Source of the DNA: a virus | Lineage: Duplodnaviria; Heunggongvirae; Uroviricota; Caudoviricetes | DNA length: 64,000 bases | Strand: one strand, 5' to 3' | IMG/VR virus record: IMGVR_UViG_2908567220_000002 | Coordinates: 33,901-97,900 of that record | Shown: positions 2,275 to 53,895 of the stretch, piece after piece | Numbering within the stretch: position 1 is the stretch's first letter | Layout of the letters: each line of letters starts with the position of its first letter | Translations under genes and position numbers: made by a program | The notes under the pieces: model-generated | What the model saw: only the letters and a program-made list of their open reading frames with translations | Database searches by the model: none | What the model was told of the DNA's origin: nothing

Positions 2275-2302
2275 GAAAAAACAAAACCCGCCGAAGCGGG
2301 TT
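2275..2302 (-). terminator. Intrinsic terminator downstream of hok
   Basis: Stem AACCCGC / GCGGGTT with CGAA loop, followed on the minus strand by a T-run. Confidence 0.55.
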
Positions 2303-2370
2303 AAGTGCGGGTGCGTTGAGGATGCCTGACTCATCAGAGGTGGCGAGGGATTTCTCCCTCGCCTGGTCTC

Positions 2371-2526
2371 TTACTCCTCAGGTTCGTAAGCTGTGAAGAC
2401 AGCGACCTCCGTCTGGCCGGTTCGGATTCGTACCTCGCAGAGGTCTTTCCTCGTTACCAGTGCCGTCATTATGACGGTTAAACAGATGACGATCAGGGCG
2501 ATTAACATCGCCTTTTGCTGCTTCAT
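2371..2526 (-). CDS. hok: Hok/Gef family type I toxin
   Basis: 51 aa MKQQKAMLIALIVICLTVIMTALVTRKDLCEVRIRTGQTEVAVFTAYEPEE; tracked ORF is extended in-frame upstream. Confidence 0.9.
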   Translation of the reverse strand: MKQQKAMLIALIVICLTVIMTALVTRKDLCEVRIRTGQTEVAVFTAYEPEE

Positions 2527-2936
2527 AGCCTGCTTCTCCTTGCCTTTCGGCACGTAAGAGGCTAACCTAGATTTGCCGTTCATAGATTGAGCCTCAGATT
2601 AATGTATAAGCGTCTTGCAGGACGCATAATGTTAACTGGGGCTTTTCTCTATCTGCCTTTGGTGTTCATGCTTGAGGCAGATAGCCTCAAGCACCCGCAG
2701 CAATTTTACTTAACTCCCCTTTTCCCACAAATCGTTTTTATCCCTACTGGTAATGTTCTCCCGATGTGGGATTCCCACATTGGAACGAATTCAATCAGTT
2801 AAAGACTCATCAGAATCTCACCTTTCTAAGTGCCCACAGGTGAGGCATTGCAATAAAAATAGCAAACGTGTATAAAAGGAGGTAATGCATGTTTTTCCAG
2901 TCTTATCAATCCATTACTGAGAGTTAAGGGGGCGCC

Positions 2937-3731
2937 GTGGATCGGTGCGGTAATTATTTACTTAAAGATGGTCGCAGTTTAGGACAAGGGAGTTTTGGCG
3001 AAGTATTTAAGGTTGATGTCTATAACTTAACCCAGACCCACATGACCACATATGCTCGCAAATACTTTTCACCTTGCCCGGACTTTGACAAGACCGCTAT
3101 AAAAGAGTTGACTGATTTAAGACAGCGTTTTTTAGTTGAGATCAAAACACAATGCACTCTCAATAGAATAAACTATGATTCAATAGCGCCAATAGTTTTA
3201 TTTAATACAAATGGTGATAAACCTTATTTTGTTATGGAATTGGCAGAGTGTAACTTATATGAAGCCATCCGCAATGGTATGAATTACGCGGAGAGGAAGT
3301 CTGCTGTTACTCAGATTTTAAAAGGAATTATCACCATACATGAAAACAACTATATACATCGTGATTTAAAACCAGGAAACATACTTTATTATGCCGATGG
3401 AAAGTATAAAATATCTGATTTTGGTCTAGTAAAAGACAGAGATACCTTACGGGCCGAAATCAAAACAAAATTTAAGCCTAATCACATGGGCACAGATGGA
3501 TATCGAGCGCCCGAAATACATGATAGCGGTCTTTTTTCTTTTCAAAGCGACATATTTGCAGCAGGTAAAATTATCACTGATATATATCCCACAGAAAGAA
3601 GTGAAAAATTAAAAAGATTGATTGCAAAATGTTGCGCACATTGGCCTGAAGAACGATATCAAAGCACACGGGAGTTACTGGAAGATTTTTTAAAAGTGAC
3701 GGGGGAGGTAAATCATGAAGAACATAATTGA
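2937..3731 (+). CDS. Hanks-type Ser/Thr protein kinase
   Basis: 264 aa; G-loop GQGSFGEV, catalytic loop HRDLKPGN, DFG, GTDGYRAPE; AT-rich; candidate promoter TTGCAA-17-TATAAA upstream. Confidence 0.9.
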   Translation: MDRCGNYLLKDGRSLGQGSFGEVFKVDVYNLTQTHMTTYARKYFSPCPDFDKTAIKELTDLRQRFLVEIKTQCTLNRINYDSIAPIVLFNTNGDKPYFVMELAECNLYEAIRNGMNYAERKSAVTQILKGIITIHENNYIHRDLKPGNILYYADGKYKISDFGLVKDRDTLRAEIKTKFKPNHMGTDGYRAPEIHDSGLFSFQSDIFAAGKIITDIYPTERSEKLKRLIAKCCAHWPEERYQSTRELLEDFLKVTGEVNHEEHN

Positions 3732-4431
3732 AATGGCATGTTTTAGCCTAAAACAACCCCAAAAAAAAGAAAATGAAGACTTTTATTTACCGCCATCTTT
3801 TGATAGCGATTTTAACATTGTCTTTGCAGTAGCTGATGGGGTTGGTTCCTCTGAACATTCAATGCTTGCATCTCATGCAGCCATTCGTGGCATTAGACAC
3901 ACGCTAGGCACTTCCTTTTTCTCAATTGAAAGTGCATTTCATTCAGCTAAAAAAGAAATTGACAATTTAGATATTAGCACTGCCACAACCTTAACAATTG
4001 TTCAGATCAAAAAAAATGAAGTGTTAATTGGTCATTCCGGTGATTGCCGAGTATACTTCAATAAAAACAACAAACTAAATCAGTTAACCACTGATCAAAC
4101 GAGATATCAAGAACTCCTTGATTCTGGTGAACATAAATTACGTAATTTAAGAAATCATAAAGAACGGCTATCTTCAGTCCTAACGAATGCTTTATCAAAT
4201 ACAACGGATTTGAATTTTGAGTTAATGTCTTTTCCGATTAGCCAGCTAATTTATAATGGCTATCTTCAACTCTATGCAATGACTGATGGTGCCTATAAGC
4301 ATTGGGATGTCAGACCAAGGTTTTCTGAGAAGACAATGCTCTCACCAACAGCTTTTGCGAGTAGTTTAAGAAAAAGGATTGAGAAAAACATAATGGATGA
4401 TTACACTTTTATAGGCGTAAAAGTAACCTAA
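3715..4431 (+). CDS. PP2C (PPM) family Ser/Thr phosphatase
   Basis: 238 aa; NEDFY, VADGVGS, GHSGDCRVY, MTDGAY motifs; overlaps kinase gene by 17 nt. Confidence 0.85.
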   Translation: MKNIIEMACFSLKQPQKKENEDFYLPPSFDSDFNIVFAVADGVGSSEHSMLASHAAIRGIRHTLGTSFFSIESAFHSAKKEIDNLDISTATTLTIVQIKKNEVLIGHSGDCRVYFNKNNKLNQLTTDQTRYQELLDSGEHKLRNLRNHKERLSSVLTNALSNTTDLNFELMSFPISQLIYNGYLQLYAMTDGAYKHWDVRPRFSEKTMLSPTAFASSLRKRIEKNIMDDYTFIGVKVT

Positions 4432-4584
4432 TTTTAGATATCCAAGATATTTACTCTAATTTAACCATAGTATTCCCAACCTCTTTTTATTGGGGGTTGG
4501 GTTCATTAAAGTCACCATTTTCTATTTCTTTCCCGTTAGAGGATATATTATTTCCAGATAAAGAAAGCAACTTCTTATGCAACT

Positions 4585-4689
4585 TCATATCACGCCATGC
4601 TTCCACCGCGGTAACTCTACATAGTCCATTAACAGTTCATGCCATTCTTCAAAACTGGCGTTATATTTAGTTGAAGCAAAATCAGCCAT
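4585..4689 (-). CDS. Small protein (34 aa), hypothetical, translationally coupled to the upstream acidic ORF
   Basis: MADFASTKYNASFEEWHELLMDYVELPRWKHGVI; SD-like GAGGAAGA in the end of the preceding ORF. Confidence 0.25.
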   Translation of the reverse strand: MADFASTKYNASFEEWHELLMDYVELPRWKHGVI

Positions 4690-4690
4690 T

Positions 4691-4864
4691 TTATTCTTCC
4701 TCTTCGTCTTTTATTTCGTGATATGAGTAATTGCAGTAGTTAAAGAAAATATCTTTTGCTTCGTCATGTATTTCATCAGGCGTCGCATCATCATCCACTT
4801 CGAATTCATCCTCGAAATCTCCACCGGCTATTCCCGTTTCAATAATTATTTTGAACTTTCGCAT
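4691..4864 (-). CDS. Small acidic protein (57 aa), hypothetical
   Basis: Hand-translated: MRKFKIIIETGIAGGDFEDEFEVDDDATPDEIHDEAKDIFFNYCNYSYHEIKDEEEE; AT-rich; below ORF-track size cutoff. Confidence 0.3.
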   Translation of the reverse strand: MRKFKIIIETGIAGGDFEDEFEVDDDATPDEIHDEAKDIFFNYCNYSYHEIKDEEEE

Positions 4865-4953
4865 TTAACTACCGCCCTGCCGGACAGCCTCCTGATGTTC
4901 TGAGGGCGCCCCCCTCCGGTTAAGGATTAAATTTTTAACAGTGCTAAATTTAA

Positions 4954-5310
4954 TTATTCAGTTCTTGATTTTGTCGCCCTGCGTATCCGCGCTTTCGCGT
5001 TACGCTCAATCTGAATTAGCTTTTCTATATTTTTCCGCCTTTCCTGTTCCTCCTGGAGCAATAACCTTACATCATCTGCCAGTCTGGTTTCTCTTTTCGC
5101 CACAGAGAGCATCCAGTCAAATGGCTCCACAACTGCACCGCAGATTTTACAGCGGACCTGACGCTCTTTTTCGTCAACCCGGACAGAGGCGTGATGGCAA
5201 TATGGTCTTTCCGATGGCTCATAAAGAAAATTAACCTGATTACGAGGGTCATCCTCTTTTGCCGGAAATAAAACGATATTGCTTAACTCATCTTCTGGTT
5301 TTATTTCCAT
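4954..5310 (-). CDS. Hypothetical protein with Cys/His cluster
   Basis: Likely start MEIKPEDE (tracked ORF 4954..5391); CHH...CKIC motif then basic coiled-coil-like tail. Confidence 0.45.
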   Translation of the reverse strand: MEIKPEDELSNIVLFPAKEDDPRNQVNFLYEPSERPYCHHASVRVDEKERQVRCKICGAVVEPFDWMLSVAKRETRLADDVRLLLQEEQERRKNIEKLIQIERNAKARIRRATKSRTE

Positions 5311-6007
5311 GCTCCTCTCCTTTGATGCGAATGCCAGCGGCGCGTGGCACATTAACTTCCACGATGCGCACAGTTGGTTTGTACATCTCAATCGCTGTCA
5401 GCCAGTCAGCTCCTGTCATGCGTTTTTCCGCATCGCCATTAGTCCACTGAACCGGCACACCAATAGCCTTCATCGCGATTTCTATTTCCCCGGCAATGGC
5501 GCTTTTTCCGCAACCAGTAAAACCAGATACAACGACAAGAACTTCGCCTTTGGCTGGTTTTATTTCCCGTGCTTCCAGTTCTGCTATGCGCTTACTTCCA
5601 TCCGCGATTACTCCCTCGTAATACTCACGCTGCTCGTTGAGTTTTGATTTTGCTGCTTCAAGCTCAACGCGCAGCTTCCCTACCGTTAGCGCAATCTCCT
5701 CGTTCTCCTGGTCGCGGCGTTTTATGTATTGCTGGTTTCTTTCCCGTTCATCCAGCAGTGCCAGTACGGTAGCCGGGTTAGCCTCTGCTATAAATGCTGC
5801 GTTTGCATAAGCCTGAGCATCTGTTTCAACCAGGCAGTTAGCATGACATTCTGCAATCACGCCACCGGGTTCTCCTTTCCATTTTTGACAAACAAAAACT
5901 CCTGTTAAATTGCCGTACTGGTTAACAGATGTATGCCCTACGATGTAGCTTCCTTTAGTTGCTTTTTCTGCCTTGGCACGCAGTACCTGATAGTCAATCT
6001 TGCTCAC
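5288..6007 (-). CDS. Ead/Ea22-like family protein (coiled-coil), tentative
   Basis: 239 aa starting MSKIDYQVLRAKAEKAT...; central coiled-coil region; typical nin-region gene. Confidence 0.45.
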   Translation of the reverse strand: MSKIDYQVLRAKAEKATKGSYIVGHTSVNQYGNLTGVFVCQKWKGEPGGVIAECHANCLVETDAQAYANAAFIAEANPATVLALLDERERNQQYIKRRDQENEEIALTVGKLRVELEAAKSKLNEQREYYEGVIADGSKRIAELEAREIKPAKGEVLVVVSGFTGCGKSAIAGEIEIAMKAIGVPVQWTNGDAEKRMTGADWLTAIEMYKPTVRIVEVNVPRAAGIRIKGEEHGNKTRR

Positions 6008-52456: not shown

Positions 52457-52540
52457 TTATCCCCAGCGGCAAATCGAATACACCACCAGCGCCACCGCCA
52501 TCGCAATTCCTACCGTTGTTAATGCTTCAGGCCAGGTCAT
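52457..52540 (-). CDS. 27-aa hydrophobic peptide, translationally coupled (ATGA overlap) to the upstream gene; speculative
   Basis: Hand-translated [27 protein letters not shown]; absent from prophage A, whose cargo island begins exactly here. Confidence 0.25.
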
Positions 52541-52881
52541 CGTAAAATATCCTCCACGCTTATCAGTCCGTTCCGCTCCAGATAACTCATCGCCTTATCC
52601 GGTAATTTGCAGTCTGGCTTCGCTTTCCTCAGTTGCCAGGTTAACTGCTTTACCAGCATGGTTAACTCATCGACCAGACGCTGATATCCCACTGGTTTGT
52701 ATTCATGCAATTTACCGGCTGGCTCTGCTGCCAGCGATACCAGTGCGATTTCCAGAACAGCAATATCCATCTTATATGTGCGGATGATGTCATGGTCGAT
52801 TGTGCCCGGTATGCACAGTCTCTGTGCTTCAATAGTCTCCTCTGCGTGAGCTATTAACTGCTCTCTGGTAAAAGTCGTCAT
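52537..52881 (-). CDS. Hypothetical nin-region protein (114 aa)
   Basis: [22 protein letters not shown]...; paralogous N-terminus to the 55-aa ORF just upstream. Confidence 0.5.
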
Positions 52882-53045
52882 GCCGTAGCCCCTTCTTGAT
52901 ATTTTTCAAACCAGAACACAACCGGCTCTGCTTCCAGTGATGCCAGCGCAATCCGTGCCAGTTCCATTTGTTCACCACGGGTAAGCCCGTTTTCAAGCGG
53001 GTTTTTAATGAACAATTCAATACGTTCTTTGGTAATAGTGGTCAT
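52878..53045 (-). CDS. Small hypothetical protein (55 aa), paralog of the N-terminal part of the downstream gene
   Basis: Hand-translated [59 protein letters not shown] overlap with next gene. Confidence 0.4.
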
Positions 53046-53055
53046 GTGTTACTCC

Positions 53056-53319
53056 TTAACCCGCAGTGCTTTCAACTGATGAGGGGAACAAAATCTTTTC
53101 ATCAAACCCTGCATTCATATCATGAACAGCAACACACCAATCCATCGACGAACGATTATCAAGAGCCTCCATGATTTCATCCATGCGGCGTAGGTCATAC
53201 AGGTAAATGCTTTTATCGCCAATGGTGTAAAAGCCAATTTTTTTCGGTGATGGACAGCGATCAAGAACTTCCTGTAATTCGTTCAACCATGCCCGTTCTT
53301 TTTTTGTCAAAGTTGCCAT
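53056..53319 (-). CDS. Hypothetical nin-region protein
   Basis: Likely start MATLTKKERAWLNELQEVLDRC; tracked ORF 53056..53409. Confidence 0.45.
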   Translation of the reverse strand: MATLTKKERAWLNELQEVLDRCPSPKKIGFYTIGDKSIYLYDLRRMDEIMEALDNRSSMDWCVAVHDMNAGFDEKILFPSSVESTAG

Positions 53320-53320
53320 A

Positions 53321-53539
53321 TCAGTTTTCCTTATACGGATTAATTTTATTGTGCAGTGTGTTGAACGACGCCCATACAACGTCGGTATACAATTCAGTAA
53401 CTGGCTCAATTATTTTCCCGATTGCCCAGACAAAAATTAGAGGGGATATCGGTATCATCAATACGATAAACAGAATGAGAAACAAAAATTCTGTCGCTCT
53501 ACTTTTTTGCGGATATTCTTTTCTGAATAATGTAGTCAT
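53321..53539 (-). CDS. Small membrane protein (one predicted TM segment)
   Basis: 72 aa with hydrophobic FLFLILFIVLMIPISPLIFVWAIG. Confidence 0.45.
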   Translation of the reverse strand: MTTLFRKEYPQKSRATEFLFLILFIVLMIPISPLIFVWAIGKIIEPVTELYTDVVWASFNTLHNKINPYKEN

Positions 53540-53571
53540 TTCTTACCGCCCTTTCGGGCGGCCTCCCGACA

Positions 53572-53784
53572 TTAATCGTTGTGGTAACTCATGGCTTCAT
53601 TTGCAGCATCAACCGGATCAACTTCCCACCAGCAATAATTTGGTGCGTTTCCTTCAGGTGTCCACGGTTCTAATTCATTTTTTGCCACATTCTCGTCGCC
53701 AGTAATTTTAAAAATCTGTTCAGAGAATTTTTTCACCCACTCGTTATATTTTTCAGTGTTAATAATTTTCTGTGTATTTGACAT
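53572..53784 (-). CDS. Hypothetical protein (70 aa)
   Basis: ORF track only; MSNTQKIINTEKYNEWVKKF... Confidence 0.4.
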   Translation of the reverse strand: MSNTQKIINTEKYNEWVKKFSEQIFKITGDENVAKNELEPWTPEGNAPNYCWWEVDPVDAANEAMSYHND

Positions 53785-53895
53785 AGATATACCTCCAGTT
53801 AAGGATTAAATTTTATTTACAGTGCTGAACTTAATTATTCAGATTTGGATTATGCTTTCTCTTTCTCTTCACGAAGTTCCGATTGTTAATTTGGC

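Follow-up and report, generated by a model that had tools for sequence, protein, structure and literature searches.

The window analysed here, a stretch of 64,000 nucleotides of the IMG/VR virus record IMGVR_UViG_2908567220_000002 (Caudoviricetes) to whose positions all coordinates refer, contains two related prophages, A and B. Beside its hok toxin gene, prophage A carries a cassette of two adjacent genes that encode a minimal Hanks-type Ser/Thr protein kinase and a Ser/Thr phosphatase of the PP2C type. The cassette moves with its own upstream region among unrelated cargo slots of temperate elements, and comparison of its homologues delimits a sharply bounded gammaproteobacterial family, in which a bare kinase is followed by a bare PP2C. 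By analogy with phosphorylation-based systems described previously, the chances seem evenly balanced that the cassette is a defence or phage-exclusion module. Its components are the following:

2843..4445, plus strand: mobile kinase-phosphatase cassette, composed of an upstream regulatory block, the kinase gene and the PP2C gene, as delimited by DNA alignment with copies of 92% and 80% identity
2937..3731, plus strand: minimal Hanks-type Ser/Thr kinase of 264 amino acids (aa), GTG start, without accessory domain, identical to RefSeq WP_000373318.1
3715..4431, plus strand: PP2C/PPM Ser/Thr phosphatase of 238 aa, ATG start, single domain, identical to RefSeq WP_000789359.1

The first of the two proteins is a member of the Hanks-type Ser/Thr kinase superfamily by domain, motifs and fold. 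It matches the Pfam Pkinase domain PF00069 with 110.3 bits (cut-off 31.7; E-value 1.4e-31) and the phage family phrog_2361 with an E-value of 2.6e-51. The motifs GxGxFGEV, ARK, HRDLK, DFG and RAPE are all present and conserved across the family, and HRDLKPGN constitutes a catalytic loop of the Ser/Thr type. In 28 aligned family kinases the residues G18, G21, K42, E68, H141-R142-D143, N148, D161-F162-G163, E193 and R240 are invariant. The AlphaFold model (pLDDT 88.2, pTM 0.87) has a complete bilobal fold with no extra domain, its low-confidence parts being limited to the activation loop (171-178) and the C-terminal tail, and Foldseek superimposed it on many solved kinases with template-modelling (TM) scores of 0.67-0.75. 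Both the Pfam scan and the model gave kinase-domain matches only, and neither revealed a DNA-binding domain or a targeting domain of the FHA or cold-shock (CSD) type.

The second protein belongs to the PPM/PP2C superfamily, since it exceeds the threshold of the Pfam domain PP2C_2 (PF13672; 41.5 bits, cut-off 24, E-value 1.4e-10) and retains the metal-binding aspartates of motifs I, II, VIII and XI. The motifs NED, ADGVGS, GDCR, DGAY and DDY are all present and conserved across the family, and the metal-site residues D22, D41-G42, G109-D110, D191-G192 and D228-D229 are invariant in 34 phosphatases. The model of this protein (pLDDT 93.7) resembles Mycobacterium tuberculosis PstP, tPphA, MsPP and Stp1 with TM scores of 0.71-0.77, i.e., 0.77 for PstP (1txo) and 0.76 for tPphA, and these two proteins were also retrieved by sequence (E-value ~3e-5). 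With invariant catalytic residues and complete, confident models, both enzymes are predicted to be catalytically competent. A first-pass annotation, made from the letters of the window alone, had proposed exactly such a complete kinase and PP2C phosphatase with these motifs and a 17-nucleotide (nt) overlap, and the open reading frames (ORFs) together with the Pfam matches above cut-off bear this out. The phosphatase aligns with positions 273-517 of the 565 of phrog_5650 only, which hints at longer or fused proteins among those from which this profile was made. As Rosetta-stone evidence, a fusion of kinase and phosphatase was looked for and rejected: the PP2C search gave 100 proteins that match the kinase set, almost all of them have 238-263 aa, and not one is fused to a kinase.

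That the two genes form one unit is evident from their arrangement and from their common history. By the 17-nt overlap of the two ORFs, translation of PP2C is coupled to that of the kinase. A bare kinase with a bare PP2C directly behind it was present at 13 of 13 curated loci. In all 14 compared loci the kinase is followed by PP2C at a spacing of -17 to +10 nt, and pairwise identities of kinases and of phosphatases co-vary with r = 0.90 (91 pairs from these 14 loci); the genes have diverged together. The same order was found in 79 of the 80 best IMG/VR loci, drawn from 387 viral stretches with a gene for a kinase relative, and in 76 of them PP2C starts at -13 to +57 nt from the kinase end. Over the 14 homologues the kinase begins with GTG in 10 and PP2C with ATG in 13. 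Kinase relatives of ~255-265 aa extend from E-values of 1e-165 to 1e-34, after which there is a gap before longer, generic kinases appear at 1e-19. These relatives come from Escherichia, Xenorhabdus, Photorhabdus, Enterobacter, Dickeya, Providencia, Pantoea, Kosakonia, Vibrio, Photobacterium, Aeromonas and Acinetobacter. No conserved third gene accompanies the pair across the genomic contexts examined.

The cassette is rare and is distributed as cargo. It was found in 35 of 5426 complete E. coli genomes (0.65%), always on the chromosome and within mobile elements; 29 of these copies are 99.7% identical to the one in the window, 4 are ~92% identical and 2 are ~80% identical. The 99.7% copies reside in Shiga-toxin-producing strains of serogroups O103, O145, O121, O45 and O157 and in enterotoxigenic E. 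coli from pigs. By contrast, the hok flank of the cassette matches 4779 E. coli genomes. The surroundings of the copies differ widely:

E. coli, copies of 99.7% and 92% identity: lambdoid slot flanked by hokD and by DUF7167/Ea22/DUF977
E. coli, 80% copy: P4-like satellite, psu-integrase interval
Cronobacter phage phiES15: between Q and the lysis genes
Escherichia phage Flotzy, and Providencia and Xenorhabdus prophages: between the lysis genes and the small terminase gene
Vibrio vulnificus: end of a filamentous prophage (Zot, Rep_trans, DUF1293)
Vibrio: element with integrase and Mob_Pre
Pantoea: adjoining an integrase
Enterobacter: adjoining a TacAT toxin-antitoxin pair
Acinetobacter and Aeromonas: plain chromosomal neighbourhoods

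The extent of the mobile unit was delimited with two comparison copies, one 92% identical and located in the same lambdoid hok slot, the other 80% identical and located in the P4 psu-int slot of E. coli Z1323PEC0011. Similarity to the latter starts at ~2843 and ends just past the PP2C stop codon, at ~4445, so that the mobile unit comprises only ~1.6 kb. Replacement by other genes in prophage B, low GC content, an upstream block that travels with the genes and at least five distinct slots make the pair accessory ("moron") or hotspot cargo. The interval psu-int of P4 is the locus from which the P4 hotspot was defined, and it is a validated reservoir of anti-phage systems (Rousset et al. 2022, PMC9122126); the idea of phage exclusion gains contextual support from the 80% copy in this hotspot and from the relatives in accessory slots of temperate phages. 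As a separate observation, beyond the frameshifted integrase of the cassette-bearing P4-like satellite in Z1323PEC0011 there lie genes for a SIR2-family protein (PDC-S25, 4e-77) and an ankyrin-repeat protein, which suggests a defence island at the attachment site of the satellite. PADLOC scans of assorted neighbours of the cassette gave this SIR2 candidate, which is outside the P4 element, and otherwise weak matches only.

Genes that flank the pair in viruses were surveyed at 46 viral loci, where the two ORFs closest to it on either side were matched against Pfam. Upstream there were found lysozyme (11), Rz (6), two CI-type repressor domains (7 and 6), N (3), Cro/YdaS (3), Q (3), Hok (2) and Psu (1), and downstream lysozyme (5), small terminases (5), large terminases (4), integrase (3) and holins (3). 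One may ask if the pair serves the lytic programme of the phage, the kinase taking over the cell or disarming host defences and the phosphatase limiting toxicity or resetting the targets. In most viral contigs the pair is indeed co-oriented with, and embedded among, lysis, Q or terminase genes, and there is a precedent in the kinase of T7, which, according to a preprint, disarms defences by pervasive phosphorylation (bioRxiv 10.1101/2024.12.20.629319). In the window, however, the cassette is antisense to the path of early and late transcription. The loci examined are all temperate elements, satellites or chromosomes, with no virulent phage among full-length tblastn matches; the cassette is retained also where a phage lytic programme is absent, and a kinase with a stoichiometrically coupled antagonist would be an odd design for takeover. 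A lytic role is considered rather unlikely.

The repressor genes in the same survey bring in another explanation, namely that the pair adjusts lysogeny or the physiology of the host through reversible phosphorylation, for instance of nucleoid proteins of the H-NS family, with defence being secondary. The outcome would be a control of prophage silencing or induction, or else a lysogenic-conversion trait. Several viral copies adjoin the CI repressor, N or Cro immunity region, and one relative is situated at the end of the filamentous prophage of V. vulnificus. The cassette itself is AT-rich, and AT-rich DNA is the class that is silenced by H-NS. Moreover, the kinase-kinase-phosphatase (KKP) module of Pf prophages governs lysogeny and virion production of these prophages by phosphorylating MvaU, a silencer that resembles H-NS (Guo et al. 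2024, PMC11341870). Yet, the cassette is kept in the P4 hotspot, in the element with integrase and Mob and at chromosomal sites where there is no prophage to be regulated, it is devoid of any DNA-binding, FHA or CSD domain that could direct it to such targets, and the many unrelated phage backbones that carry it argue against phage-specific regulation. Regulation as the principal role is, in our estimation, unlikely.

Within prophage A the cassette occupies a variable slot between the hok/sok locus and genes of the nin region. The features of this slot that lie outside the cassette are:

2746..4912, no strand assigned: variable cargo slot in prophage A, AT-rich, without homology to prophage B and flanked by the hok/sok locus and nin-region genes
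2371..2696, minus strand: hok toxin gene with its antisense RNA sok, a type I toxin-antitoxin locus that anchors the slot on the left (HOK_GEF 4.4e-23; Rfam sok 110 bits at 2521-2696)
4691..4864, minus strand: small acidic DUF7167 protein of 57 aa (PF23768 7e-15; phrog_1997 7.5e-31)

When the window was compared with itself by blastn, homology between prophages A and B ended at 2744 (corresponding to 52463) and resumed from 4913 (corresponding to 53792). The position of sok (2521-2696, minus strand) places the entire hok/sok locus in the part that is common to both prophages. The equivalent slot of prophage B (52464-53791, ~1.3 kb) is taken by 4-5 unrelated small ORFs on the minus strand (114, 55, 117, 72 and 70 aa), and hence the site is a replaceable cargo slot and not the target of a simple insertion; different ORFs beside prophage B's own copy of hok imply that the slot turns over. 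The first-pass annotation had described an insertion of ~2.2 kb from ~2746. The break in homology is where it had been placed, but the occupied slot of prophage B and the 1.6-kb mobile unit do not agree with a single insertion of this size. What remains of the island (~0.47 kb) belongs to the minus-strand cargo of the lambdoid backbone, including a hairpin (4475-4501), a short ORF and DUF7167. The latter is missing from the P4-satellite copy of the cassette and is phage backbone cargo that lies inside the slot and outside the kinase-phosphatase cassette. The AT-rich character of the island holds, with GC content of 0.32-0.40 over ~2850-4950 in comparison to ~0.5 in the flanks, and so does the claim that both genes are antiparallel to their surroundings: all neighbours with a family assignment (RusA, DUF968, hok, DUF7167, a Zn-ribbon protein, a SAM methyltransferase, DUF977, replication genes and a Cro-like gene) are encoded on the minus strand.

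Two observations concern the neighbours only. Just downstream of hok, between it and the DUF968, RusA and Q genes, there is a weak match to an isrK-like small RNA (2281-2362, minus strand; 27.8 bits, gathering score 50, E-value 0.0027). On the other side of the slot, at 4954-5391 (minus strand), a protein of 145 aa with a weak match to a TFIIB-type zinc ribbon (phrog_1621, 1.4e-55) is encoded by an ORF that is frameshifted in the closest RefSeq genome.

The vicinity of hok/sok, like that of TacAT in Enterobacter, is compatible with a selfish addiction module, in which a stable toxic kinase and a labile phosphatase would stabilise the carrier element in the manner of hok/sok and play no immune role. 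The pair is a tight antagonistic two-gene unit that is always co-inherited, and KKP was found to act as a toxin-antitoxin system. Unlike type II toxin-antitoxin systems, it has the toxin gene first and is without an autoregulatory DNA-binding antitoxin. This explanation also overlaps with phage exclusion, since many toxin-antitoxin systems double as abortive-infection systems. Addiction as the sole function is regarded as quite improbable.

Several non-coding signals were recognised in and around the cassette:

2848..2876, plus strand: candidate sigma-70 promoter, TTGCAA (2848-2853), 17-nt spacer, TATAAA (2871-2876)
2889..2927, plus strand: upstream ORF of 12 codons, MFFQSYQSITES*, with ATG at 2889 and a stop codon that overlaps the Shine-Dalgarno sequence of the kinase
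2761..2783, no strand assigned: 10-bp hairpin at the left junction of the slot (RNA fold -23.3 kcal/mol, z -4.4)
4475..4501, no strand assigned: 10-bp hairpin, rich in GC, that separates the convergent PP2C gene from minus-strand phage genes (fold -17.4 kcal/mol, z -3.2, plus strand)

The hexamers of the candidate promoter and their 17-nt spacing are kept in both comparison copies, the 80% copy having TTGCGC-17-TATAAA, and this conservation is the only argument in favour of the promoter. The Shine-Dalgarno sequence of the kinase, AAGGGGG, lies at 2926-2932, 4 nt ahead of GTG. The peptide of the upstream ORF is also kept, as MFCQSYQSIT* in the 92% copy and (V/M)FSQSYHAIT* in the 80% copy, and the ORF has a strong Shine-Dalgarno sequence of its own, AAGGAGG (2876-2882). 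This sequence overlaps the candidate -10 hexamer and therefore lies upstream of the transcript start that the candidate promoter implies, so that the promoter and the Shine-Dalgarno sequence of the upstream ORF cannot both be functional. It is doubtful that the 12-codon ORF is a gene. Folding of the 5' leader (2876-2960) is no better than that of shuffled sequences (z +0.45). The stem of the left hairpin is preserved in the 92% copy through paired substitutions, and since no T-run follows, the hairpin is not a canonical terminator. The right hairpin is conserved in the 92% copy with an even better stem, and the P4-satellite copy has in its place a hairpin of its own followed by a T-run; probably, the hairpin at 4475-4501 is a transcript end or an insulator. 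No canonical promoter or terminator was called for the operon; this hairpin is not of the T-run type, and the counts did not exceed those of shuffles. The Rfam scan yielded sok and the sub-threshold isrK-like match alone, with none inside the cassette.

Taken as a defence or phage-exclusion module, the cassette may work as a switch, the mechanism of which is proposed here because of the analogy with KKP, Stk2 and pairs of the PknB/PstP type. A link to defence is favoured by matches of the kinase, over its kinase domain, to the models of the defence kinases MAD6, PD-T4-6 and Stk2, and by KKP as an example of a prophage kinase/PP2C module with a defence function. In a lysogen, transcription of the cassette would start at its own promoter and run antisense to the early operon of the phage; an orientation antisense to the path from pR to Q would fit expression in the lysogen and interference upon induction. 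PP2C would hold the kinase and its substrates dephosphorylated, and the weak GTG start of the kinase combined with the coupled ATG start of PP2C might favour an excess of the phosphatase. Infection by a competing phage could tip this balance in two ways: either a phage protein inhibits or titrates PP2C, as in KKP, or the kinase is activated directly, as in Stk2 and the Stk of phage 933W. The kinase would then autophosphorylate its conserved activation loop, KT(K/R)F...G(T/S)DGYRAPE, and, once active, it would phosphorylate many host or phage proteins. The expected outcome is cell arrest or a block of phage replication, i.e., abortive infection or exclusion, from which the lysogen population and the resident prophage would benefit.

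More tentatively, and with a probability clearly below even, the cassette may represent a two-protein immune system that is widespread in Gammaproteobacteria and their temperate phages but has so far gone unrecognised, a minimal form of phosphorylation-based immunity that is independent of KKP and in which the bare PP2C is a guarded sensor. Phage proteins that bind or inhibit PP2C would release a promiscuous kinase, and infection would be aborted. The logic of a guarded PP2C is that of PP2C-SnRK2 control in abscisic-acid signalling of plants.

A number of findings weigh against assigning the cassette to phage exclusion. The upstream neighbour is co-oriented with the cassette in 41 of the 46 viral loci, and co-orientation with late or lysis genes in most viral contigs may mean lytic expression that serves the phage. 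The copies of Acinetobacter and Aeromonas have no visible mobile element or defence genes nearby. No PADLOC model matches PP2C, and the matches of the kinase to PADLOC defence models are limited to the generic kinase domain. As neither protein contains a sensor domain, the trigger is conjectural. Concerning the start signals listed in the first-pass annotation, TTGCAA-17-TATAAA, AAGGGGG and GTG are all present, but the candidate promoter fails a consensus scan, and promoter-like sites in the region are not enriched (5, with 7.6 expected from shuffles). Finally, a search of the literature for the two-gene family, by RefSeq accession and by concept, returned no study and no phenotype.

Should the cassette prove to be a switch of the immune or toxin-antitoxin-like kind, no smaller one based on phosphorylation would be known: it has two single-domain enzymes and no sensor domain in ~1.6 kb, and this small design would offer a clean model of how a kinase/phosphatase balance senses infection. 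Being native to prophages of Shiga-toxin-producing and enterotoxigenic E. coli, the cassette could influence phage susceptibility, superinfection and prophage dynamics in these strains. Since PP2C has no match among its models, PADLOC v2 does not contain the family as a system, and current defence annotation either misses the pair or would call the kinase alone PD-T4-6-like.

How does the pair relate to systems that are already known? Housekeeping pairs such as PknB/PstP and Stk1/Stp1 consist of members of the same two superfamilies, their PP2C reverses the phosphorylation of activation loop and substrates, and among solved structures PstP, tPphA and Stp1 come closest to the cassette phosphatase. 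The housekeeping kinases, however, are membrane proteins of the core genome that carry PASTA or other sensor domains, whereas the enzymes of the cassette are soluble, of minimal domain content, rare and located on mobile elements. Assignment to the Stk1(PASTA)/Stp1 pair was rejected, since the scores are far below the cut-offs (NF033483, 88.9 against 450; NF033484, 68 against 230), extra domains are missing and only 35 of 5426 E. coli genomes carry the cassette. Rarity, mobile-element context and sub-threshold equivalog scores together indicate that this is not a housekeeping Stk/Stp pair, the alternative that the first-pass annotation itself had named as fatal to its proposal.

The same annotation had cited the Stk of phage 933W and the staphylococcal Stk2 as kinases that mediate phage exclusion, and these proved to be only distant relatives in the kinase domain. 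Stk of the Shiga-toxin phage 933W, reportedly described by Friedman and colleagues in 2011 (cited in PMC9122126), is said to bring about exclusion of HK97. It is likewise a eukaryote-like kinase, carried as non-essential cargo of a lambdoid prophage and proposed to be an abortive-infection effector. It differs in its length of 348 aa, in an identity of 27% over 197 aligned positions that is confined to the C-lobe, in having HFD where the cassette kinase has HRD, and in its location in the immunity region downstream of cI without a phosphatase neighbour. It was not retrieved by tblastn at E-values up to 1e-3, and orthology was rejected on account of the C-lobe-only similarity, HFD, the different locus and the missing phosphatase neighbour. 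Stk2 of Staphylococcus epidermidis, attributed to Depardieu and colleagues in 2016, is reportedly a Hanks-type kinase that causes abortive infection. The PADLOC Stk2 model matches the cassette kinase domain (2.6e-25), but Stk2 is a larger stand-alone protein of a Gram-positive host, without a dedicated phosphatase in a cassette, and membership was rejected since the match is limited to positions 162-360 of the 500 of the model.

PD-T4-6 is a Ser/Thr kinase of E. coli that was validated against T4 and is encoded by a single coding sequence of 1311 nt (436 aa; Vassallo et al. 2022, PMC9519451, Table S2). Its kinase domain, at residues ~9-284, is followed by a C-terminal extension. Among E. coli defence models it gave the best match to the cassette kinase (1.2e-32). 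It is, however, a single-gene system without a PP2C partner, and membership was rejected, since the model aligned over positions 16-202 of 327 only and the cassette combines a kinase of 264 aa with an obligate PP2C. The PADLOC mad6 model matched the cassette kinase with 1e-37 over positions 54-246 of 659 only, and MAD6 of MADS was rejected as well, with 70.6 bits for NF047741 against a cut-off of 460.

The closest characterised analogue of the cassette is KKP, a prophage-encoded toxin-antitoxin and defence module that consists of the PP2C PfpC, the FHA-domain kinase PfkB and the cold-shock-domain kinase PfkA, is hosted by Pseudomonas Pf prophages and by P2-, P4- and Mu-like elements, and is triggered in defence by a phage protein that inhibits the phosphatase (PMC11341870). 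KKP has three genes in the order phosphatase-kinase-kinase, each of 900-1300 bp, and both kinases are required for toxicity; the cassette has the reverse order, with a single bare kinase of 264 aa and then a bare PP2C of 238 aa. In BLASTP comparisons with the E. coli KKP listed in the table of Rousset et al., its two kinases aligned with the cassette kinase at the cores only (29% over 139 aa and 22% over 234 aa) and its PP2C with that of the cassette at 31% over 42 aa (E-value 0.025). Membership in KKP was rejected, given one kinase, the order kinase-then-phosphatase, neither CSD nor FHA, and no second kinase in the island; one kinase ahead of one phosphatase is also the rule at all related loci.

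A two-gene locus "Pkinase + PP2C_2" is, moreover, already listed, without functional assay, in the P2-hotspot table of Rousset et al. (PMC9122126). With KKP published in 2024 and this catalogue entry, the pairing of kinase and phosphatase as a concept is not new, and the first-pass annotation, which knew of no characterised pairing of this kind in a lambdoid prophage, has to be narrowed in this respect; what stands is that no paper was found on the two-gene family itself. This family is distinct in sequence and architecture, widespread in temperate phages and apparently uncharacterised. As an observation in its own right, the copy in the V. vulnificus filamentous prophage parallels the KKP site in Pf prophages, the proteins being only distantly related. 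Like KKP, the cassette is accessory cargo of prophages and satellites that unites Hanks-type kinase activity and a PP2C antagonist in one operon, it occupies similar hotspots, including P4 psu-int of E. coli and filamentous prophages, and the working model for both, a phosphatase that restrains a toxic kinase, may by analogy be the same.

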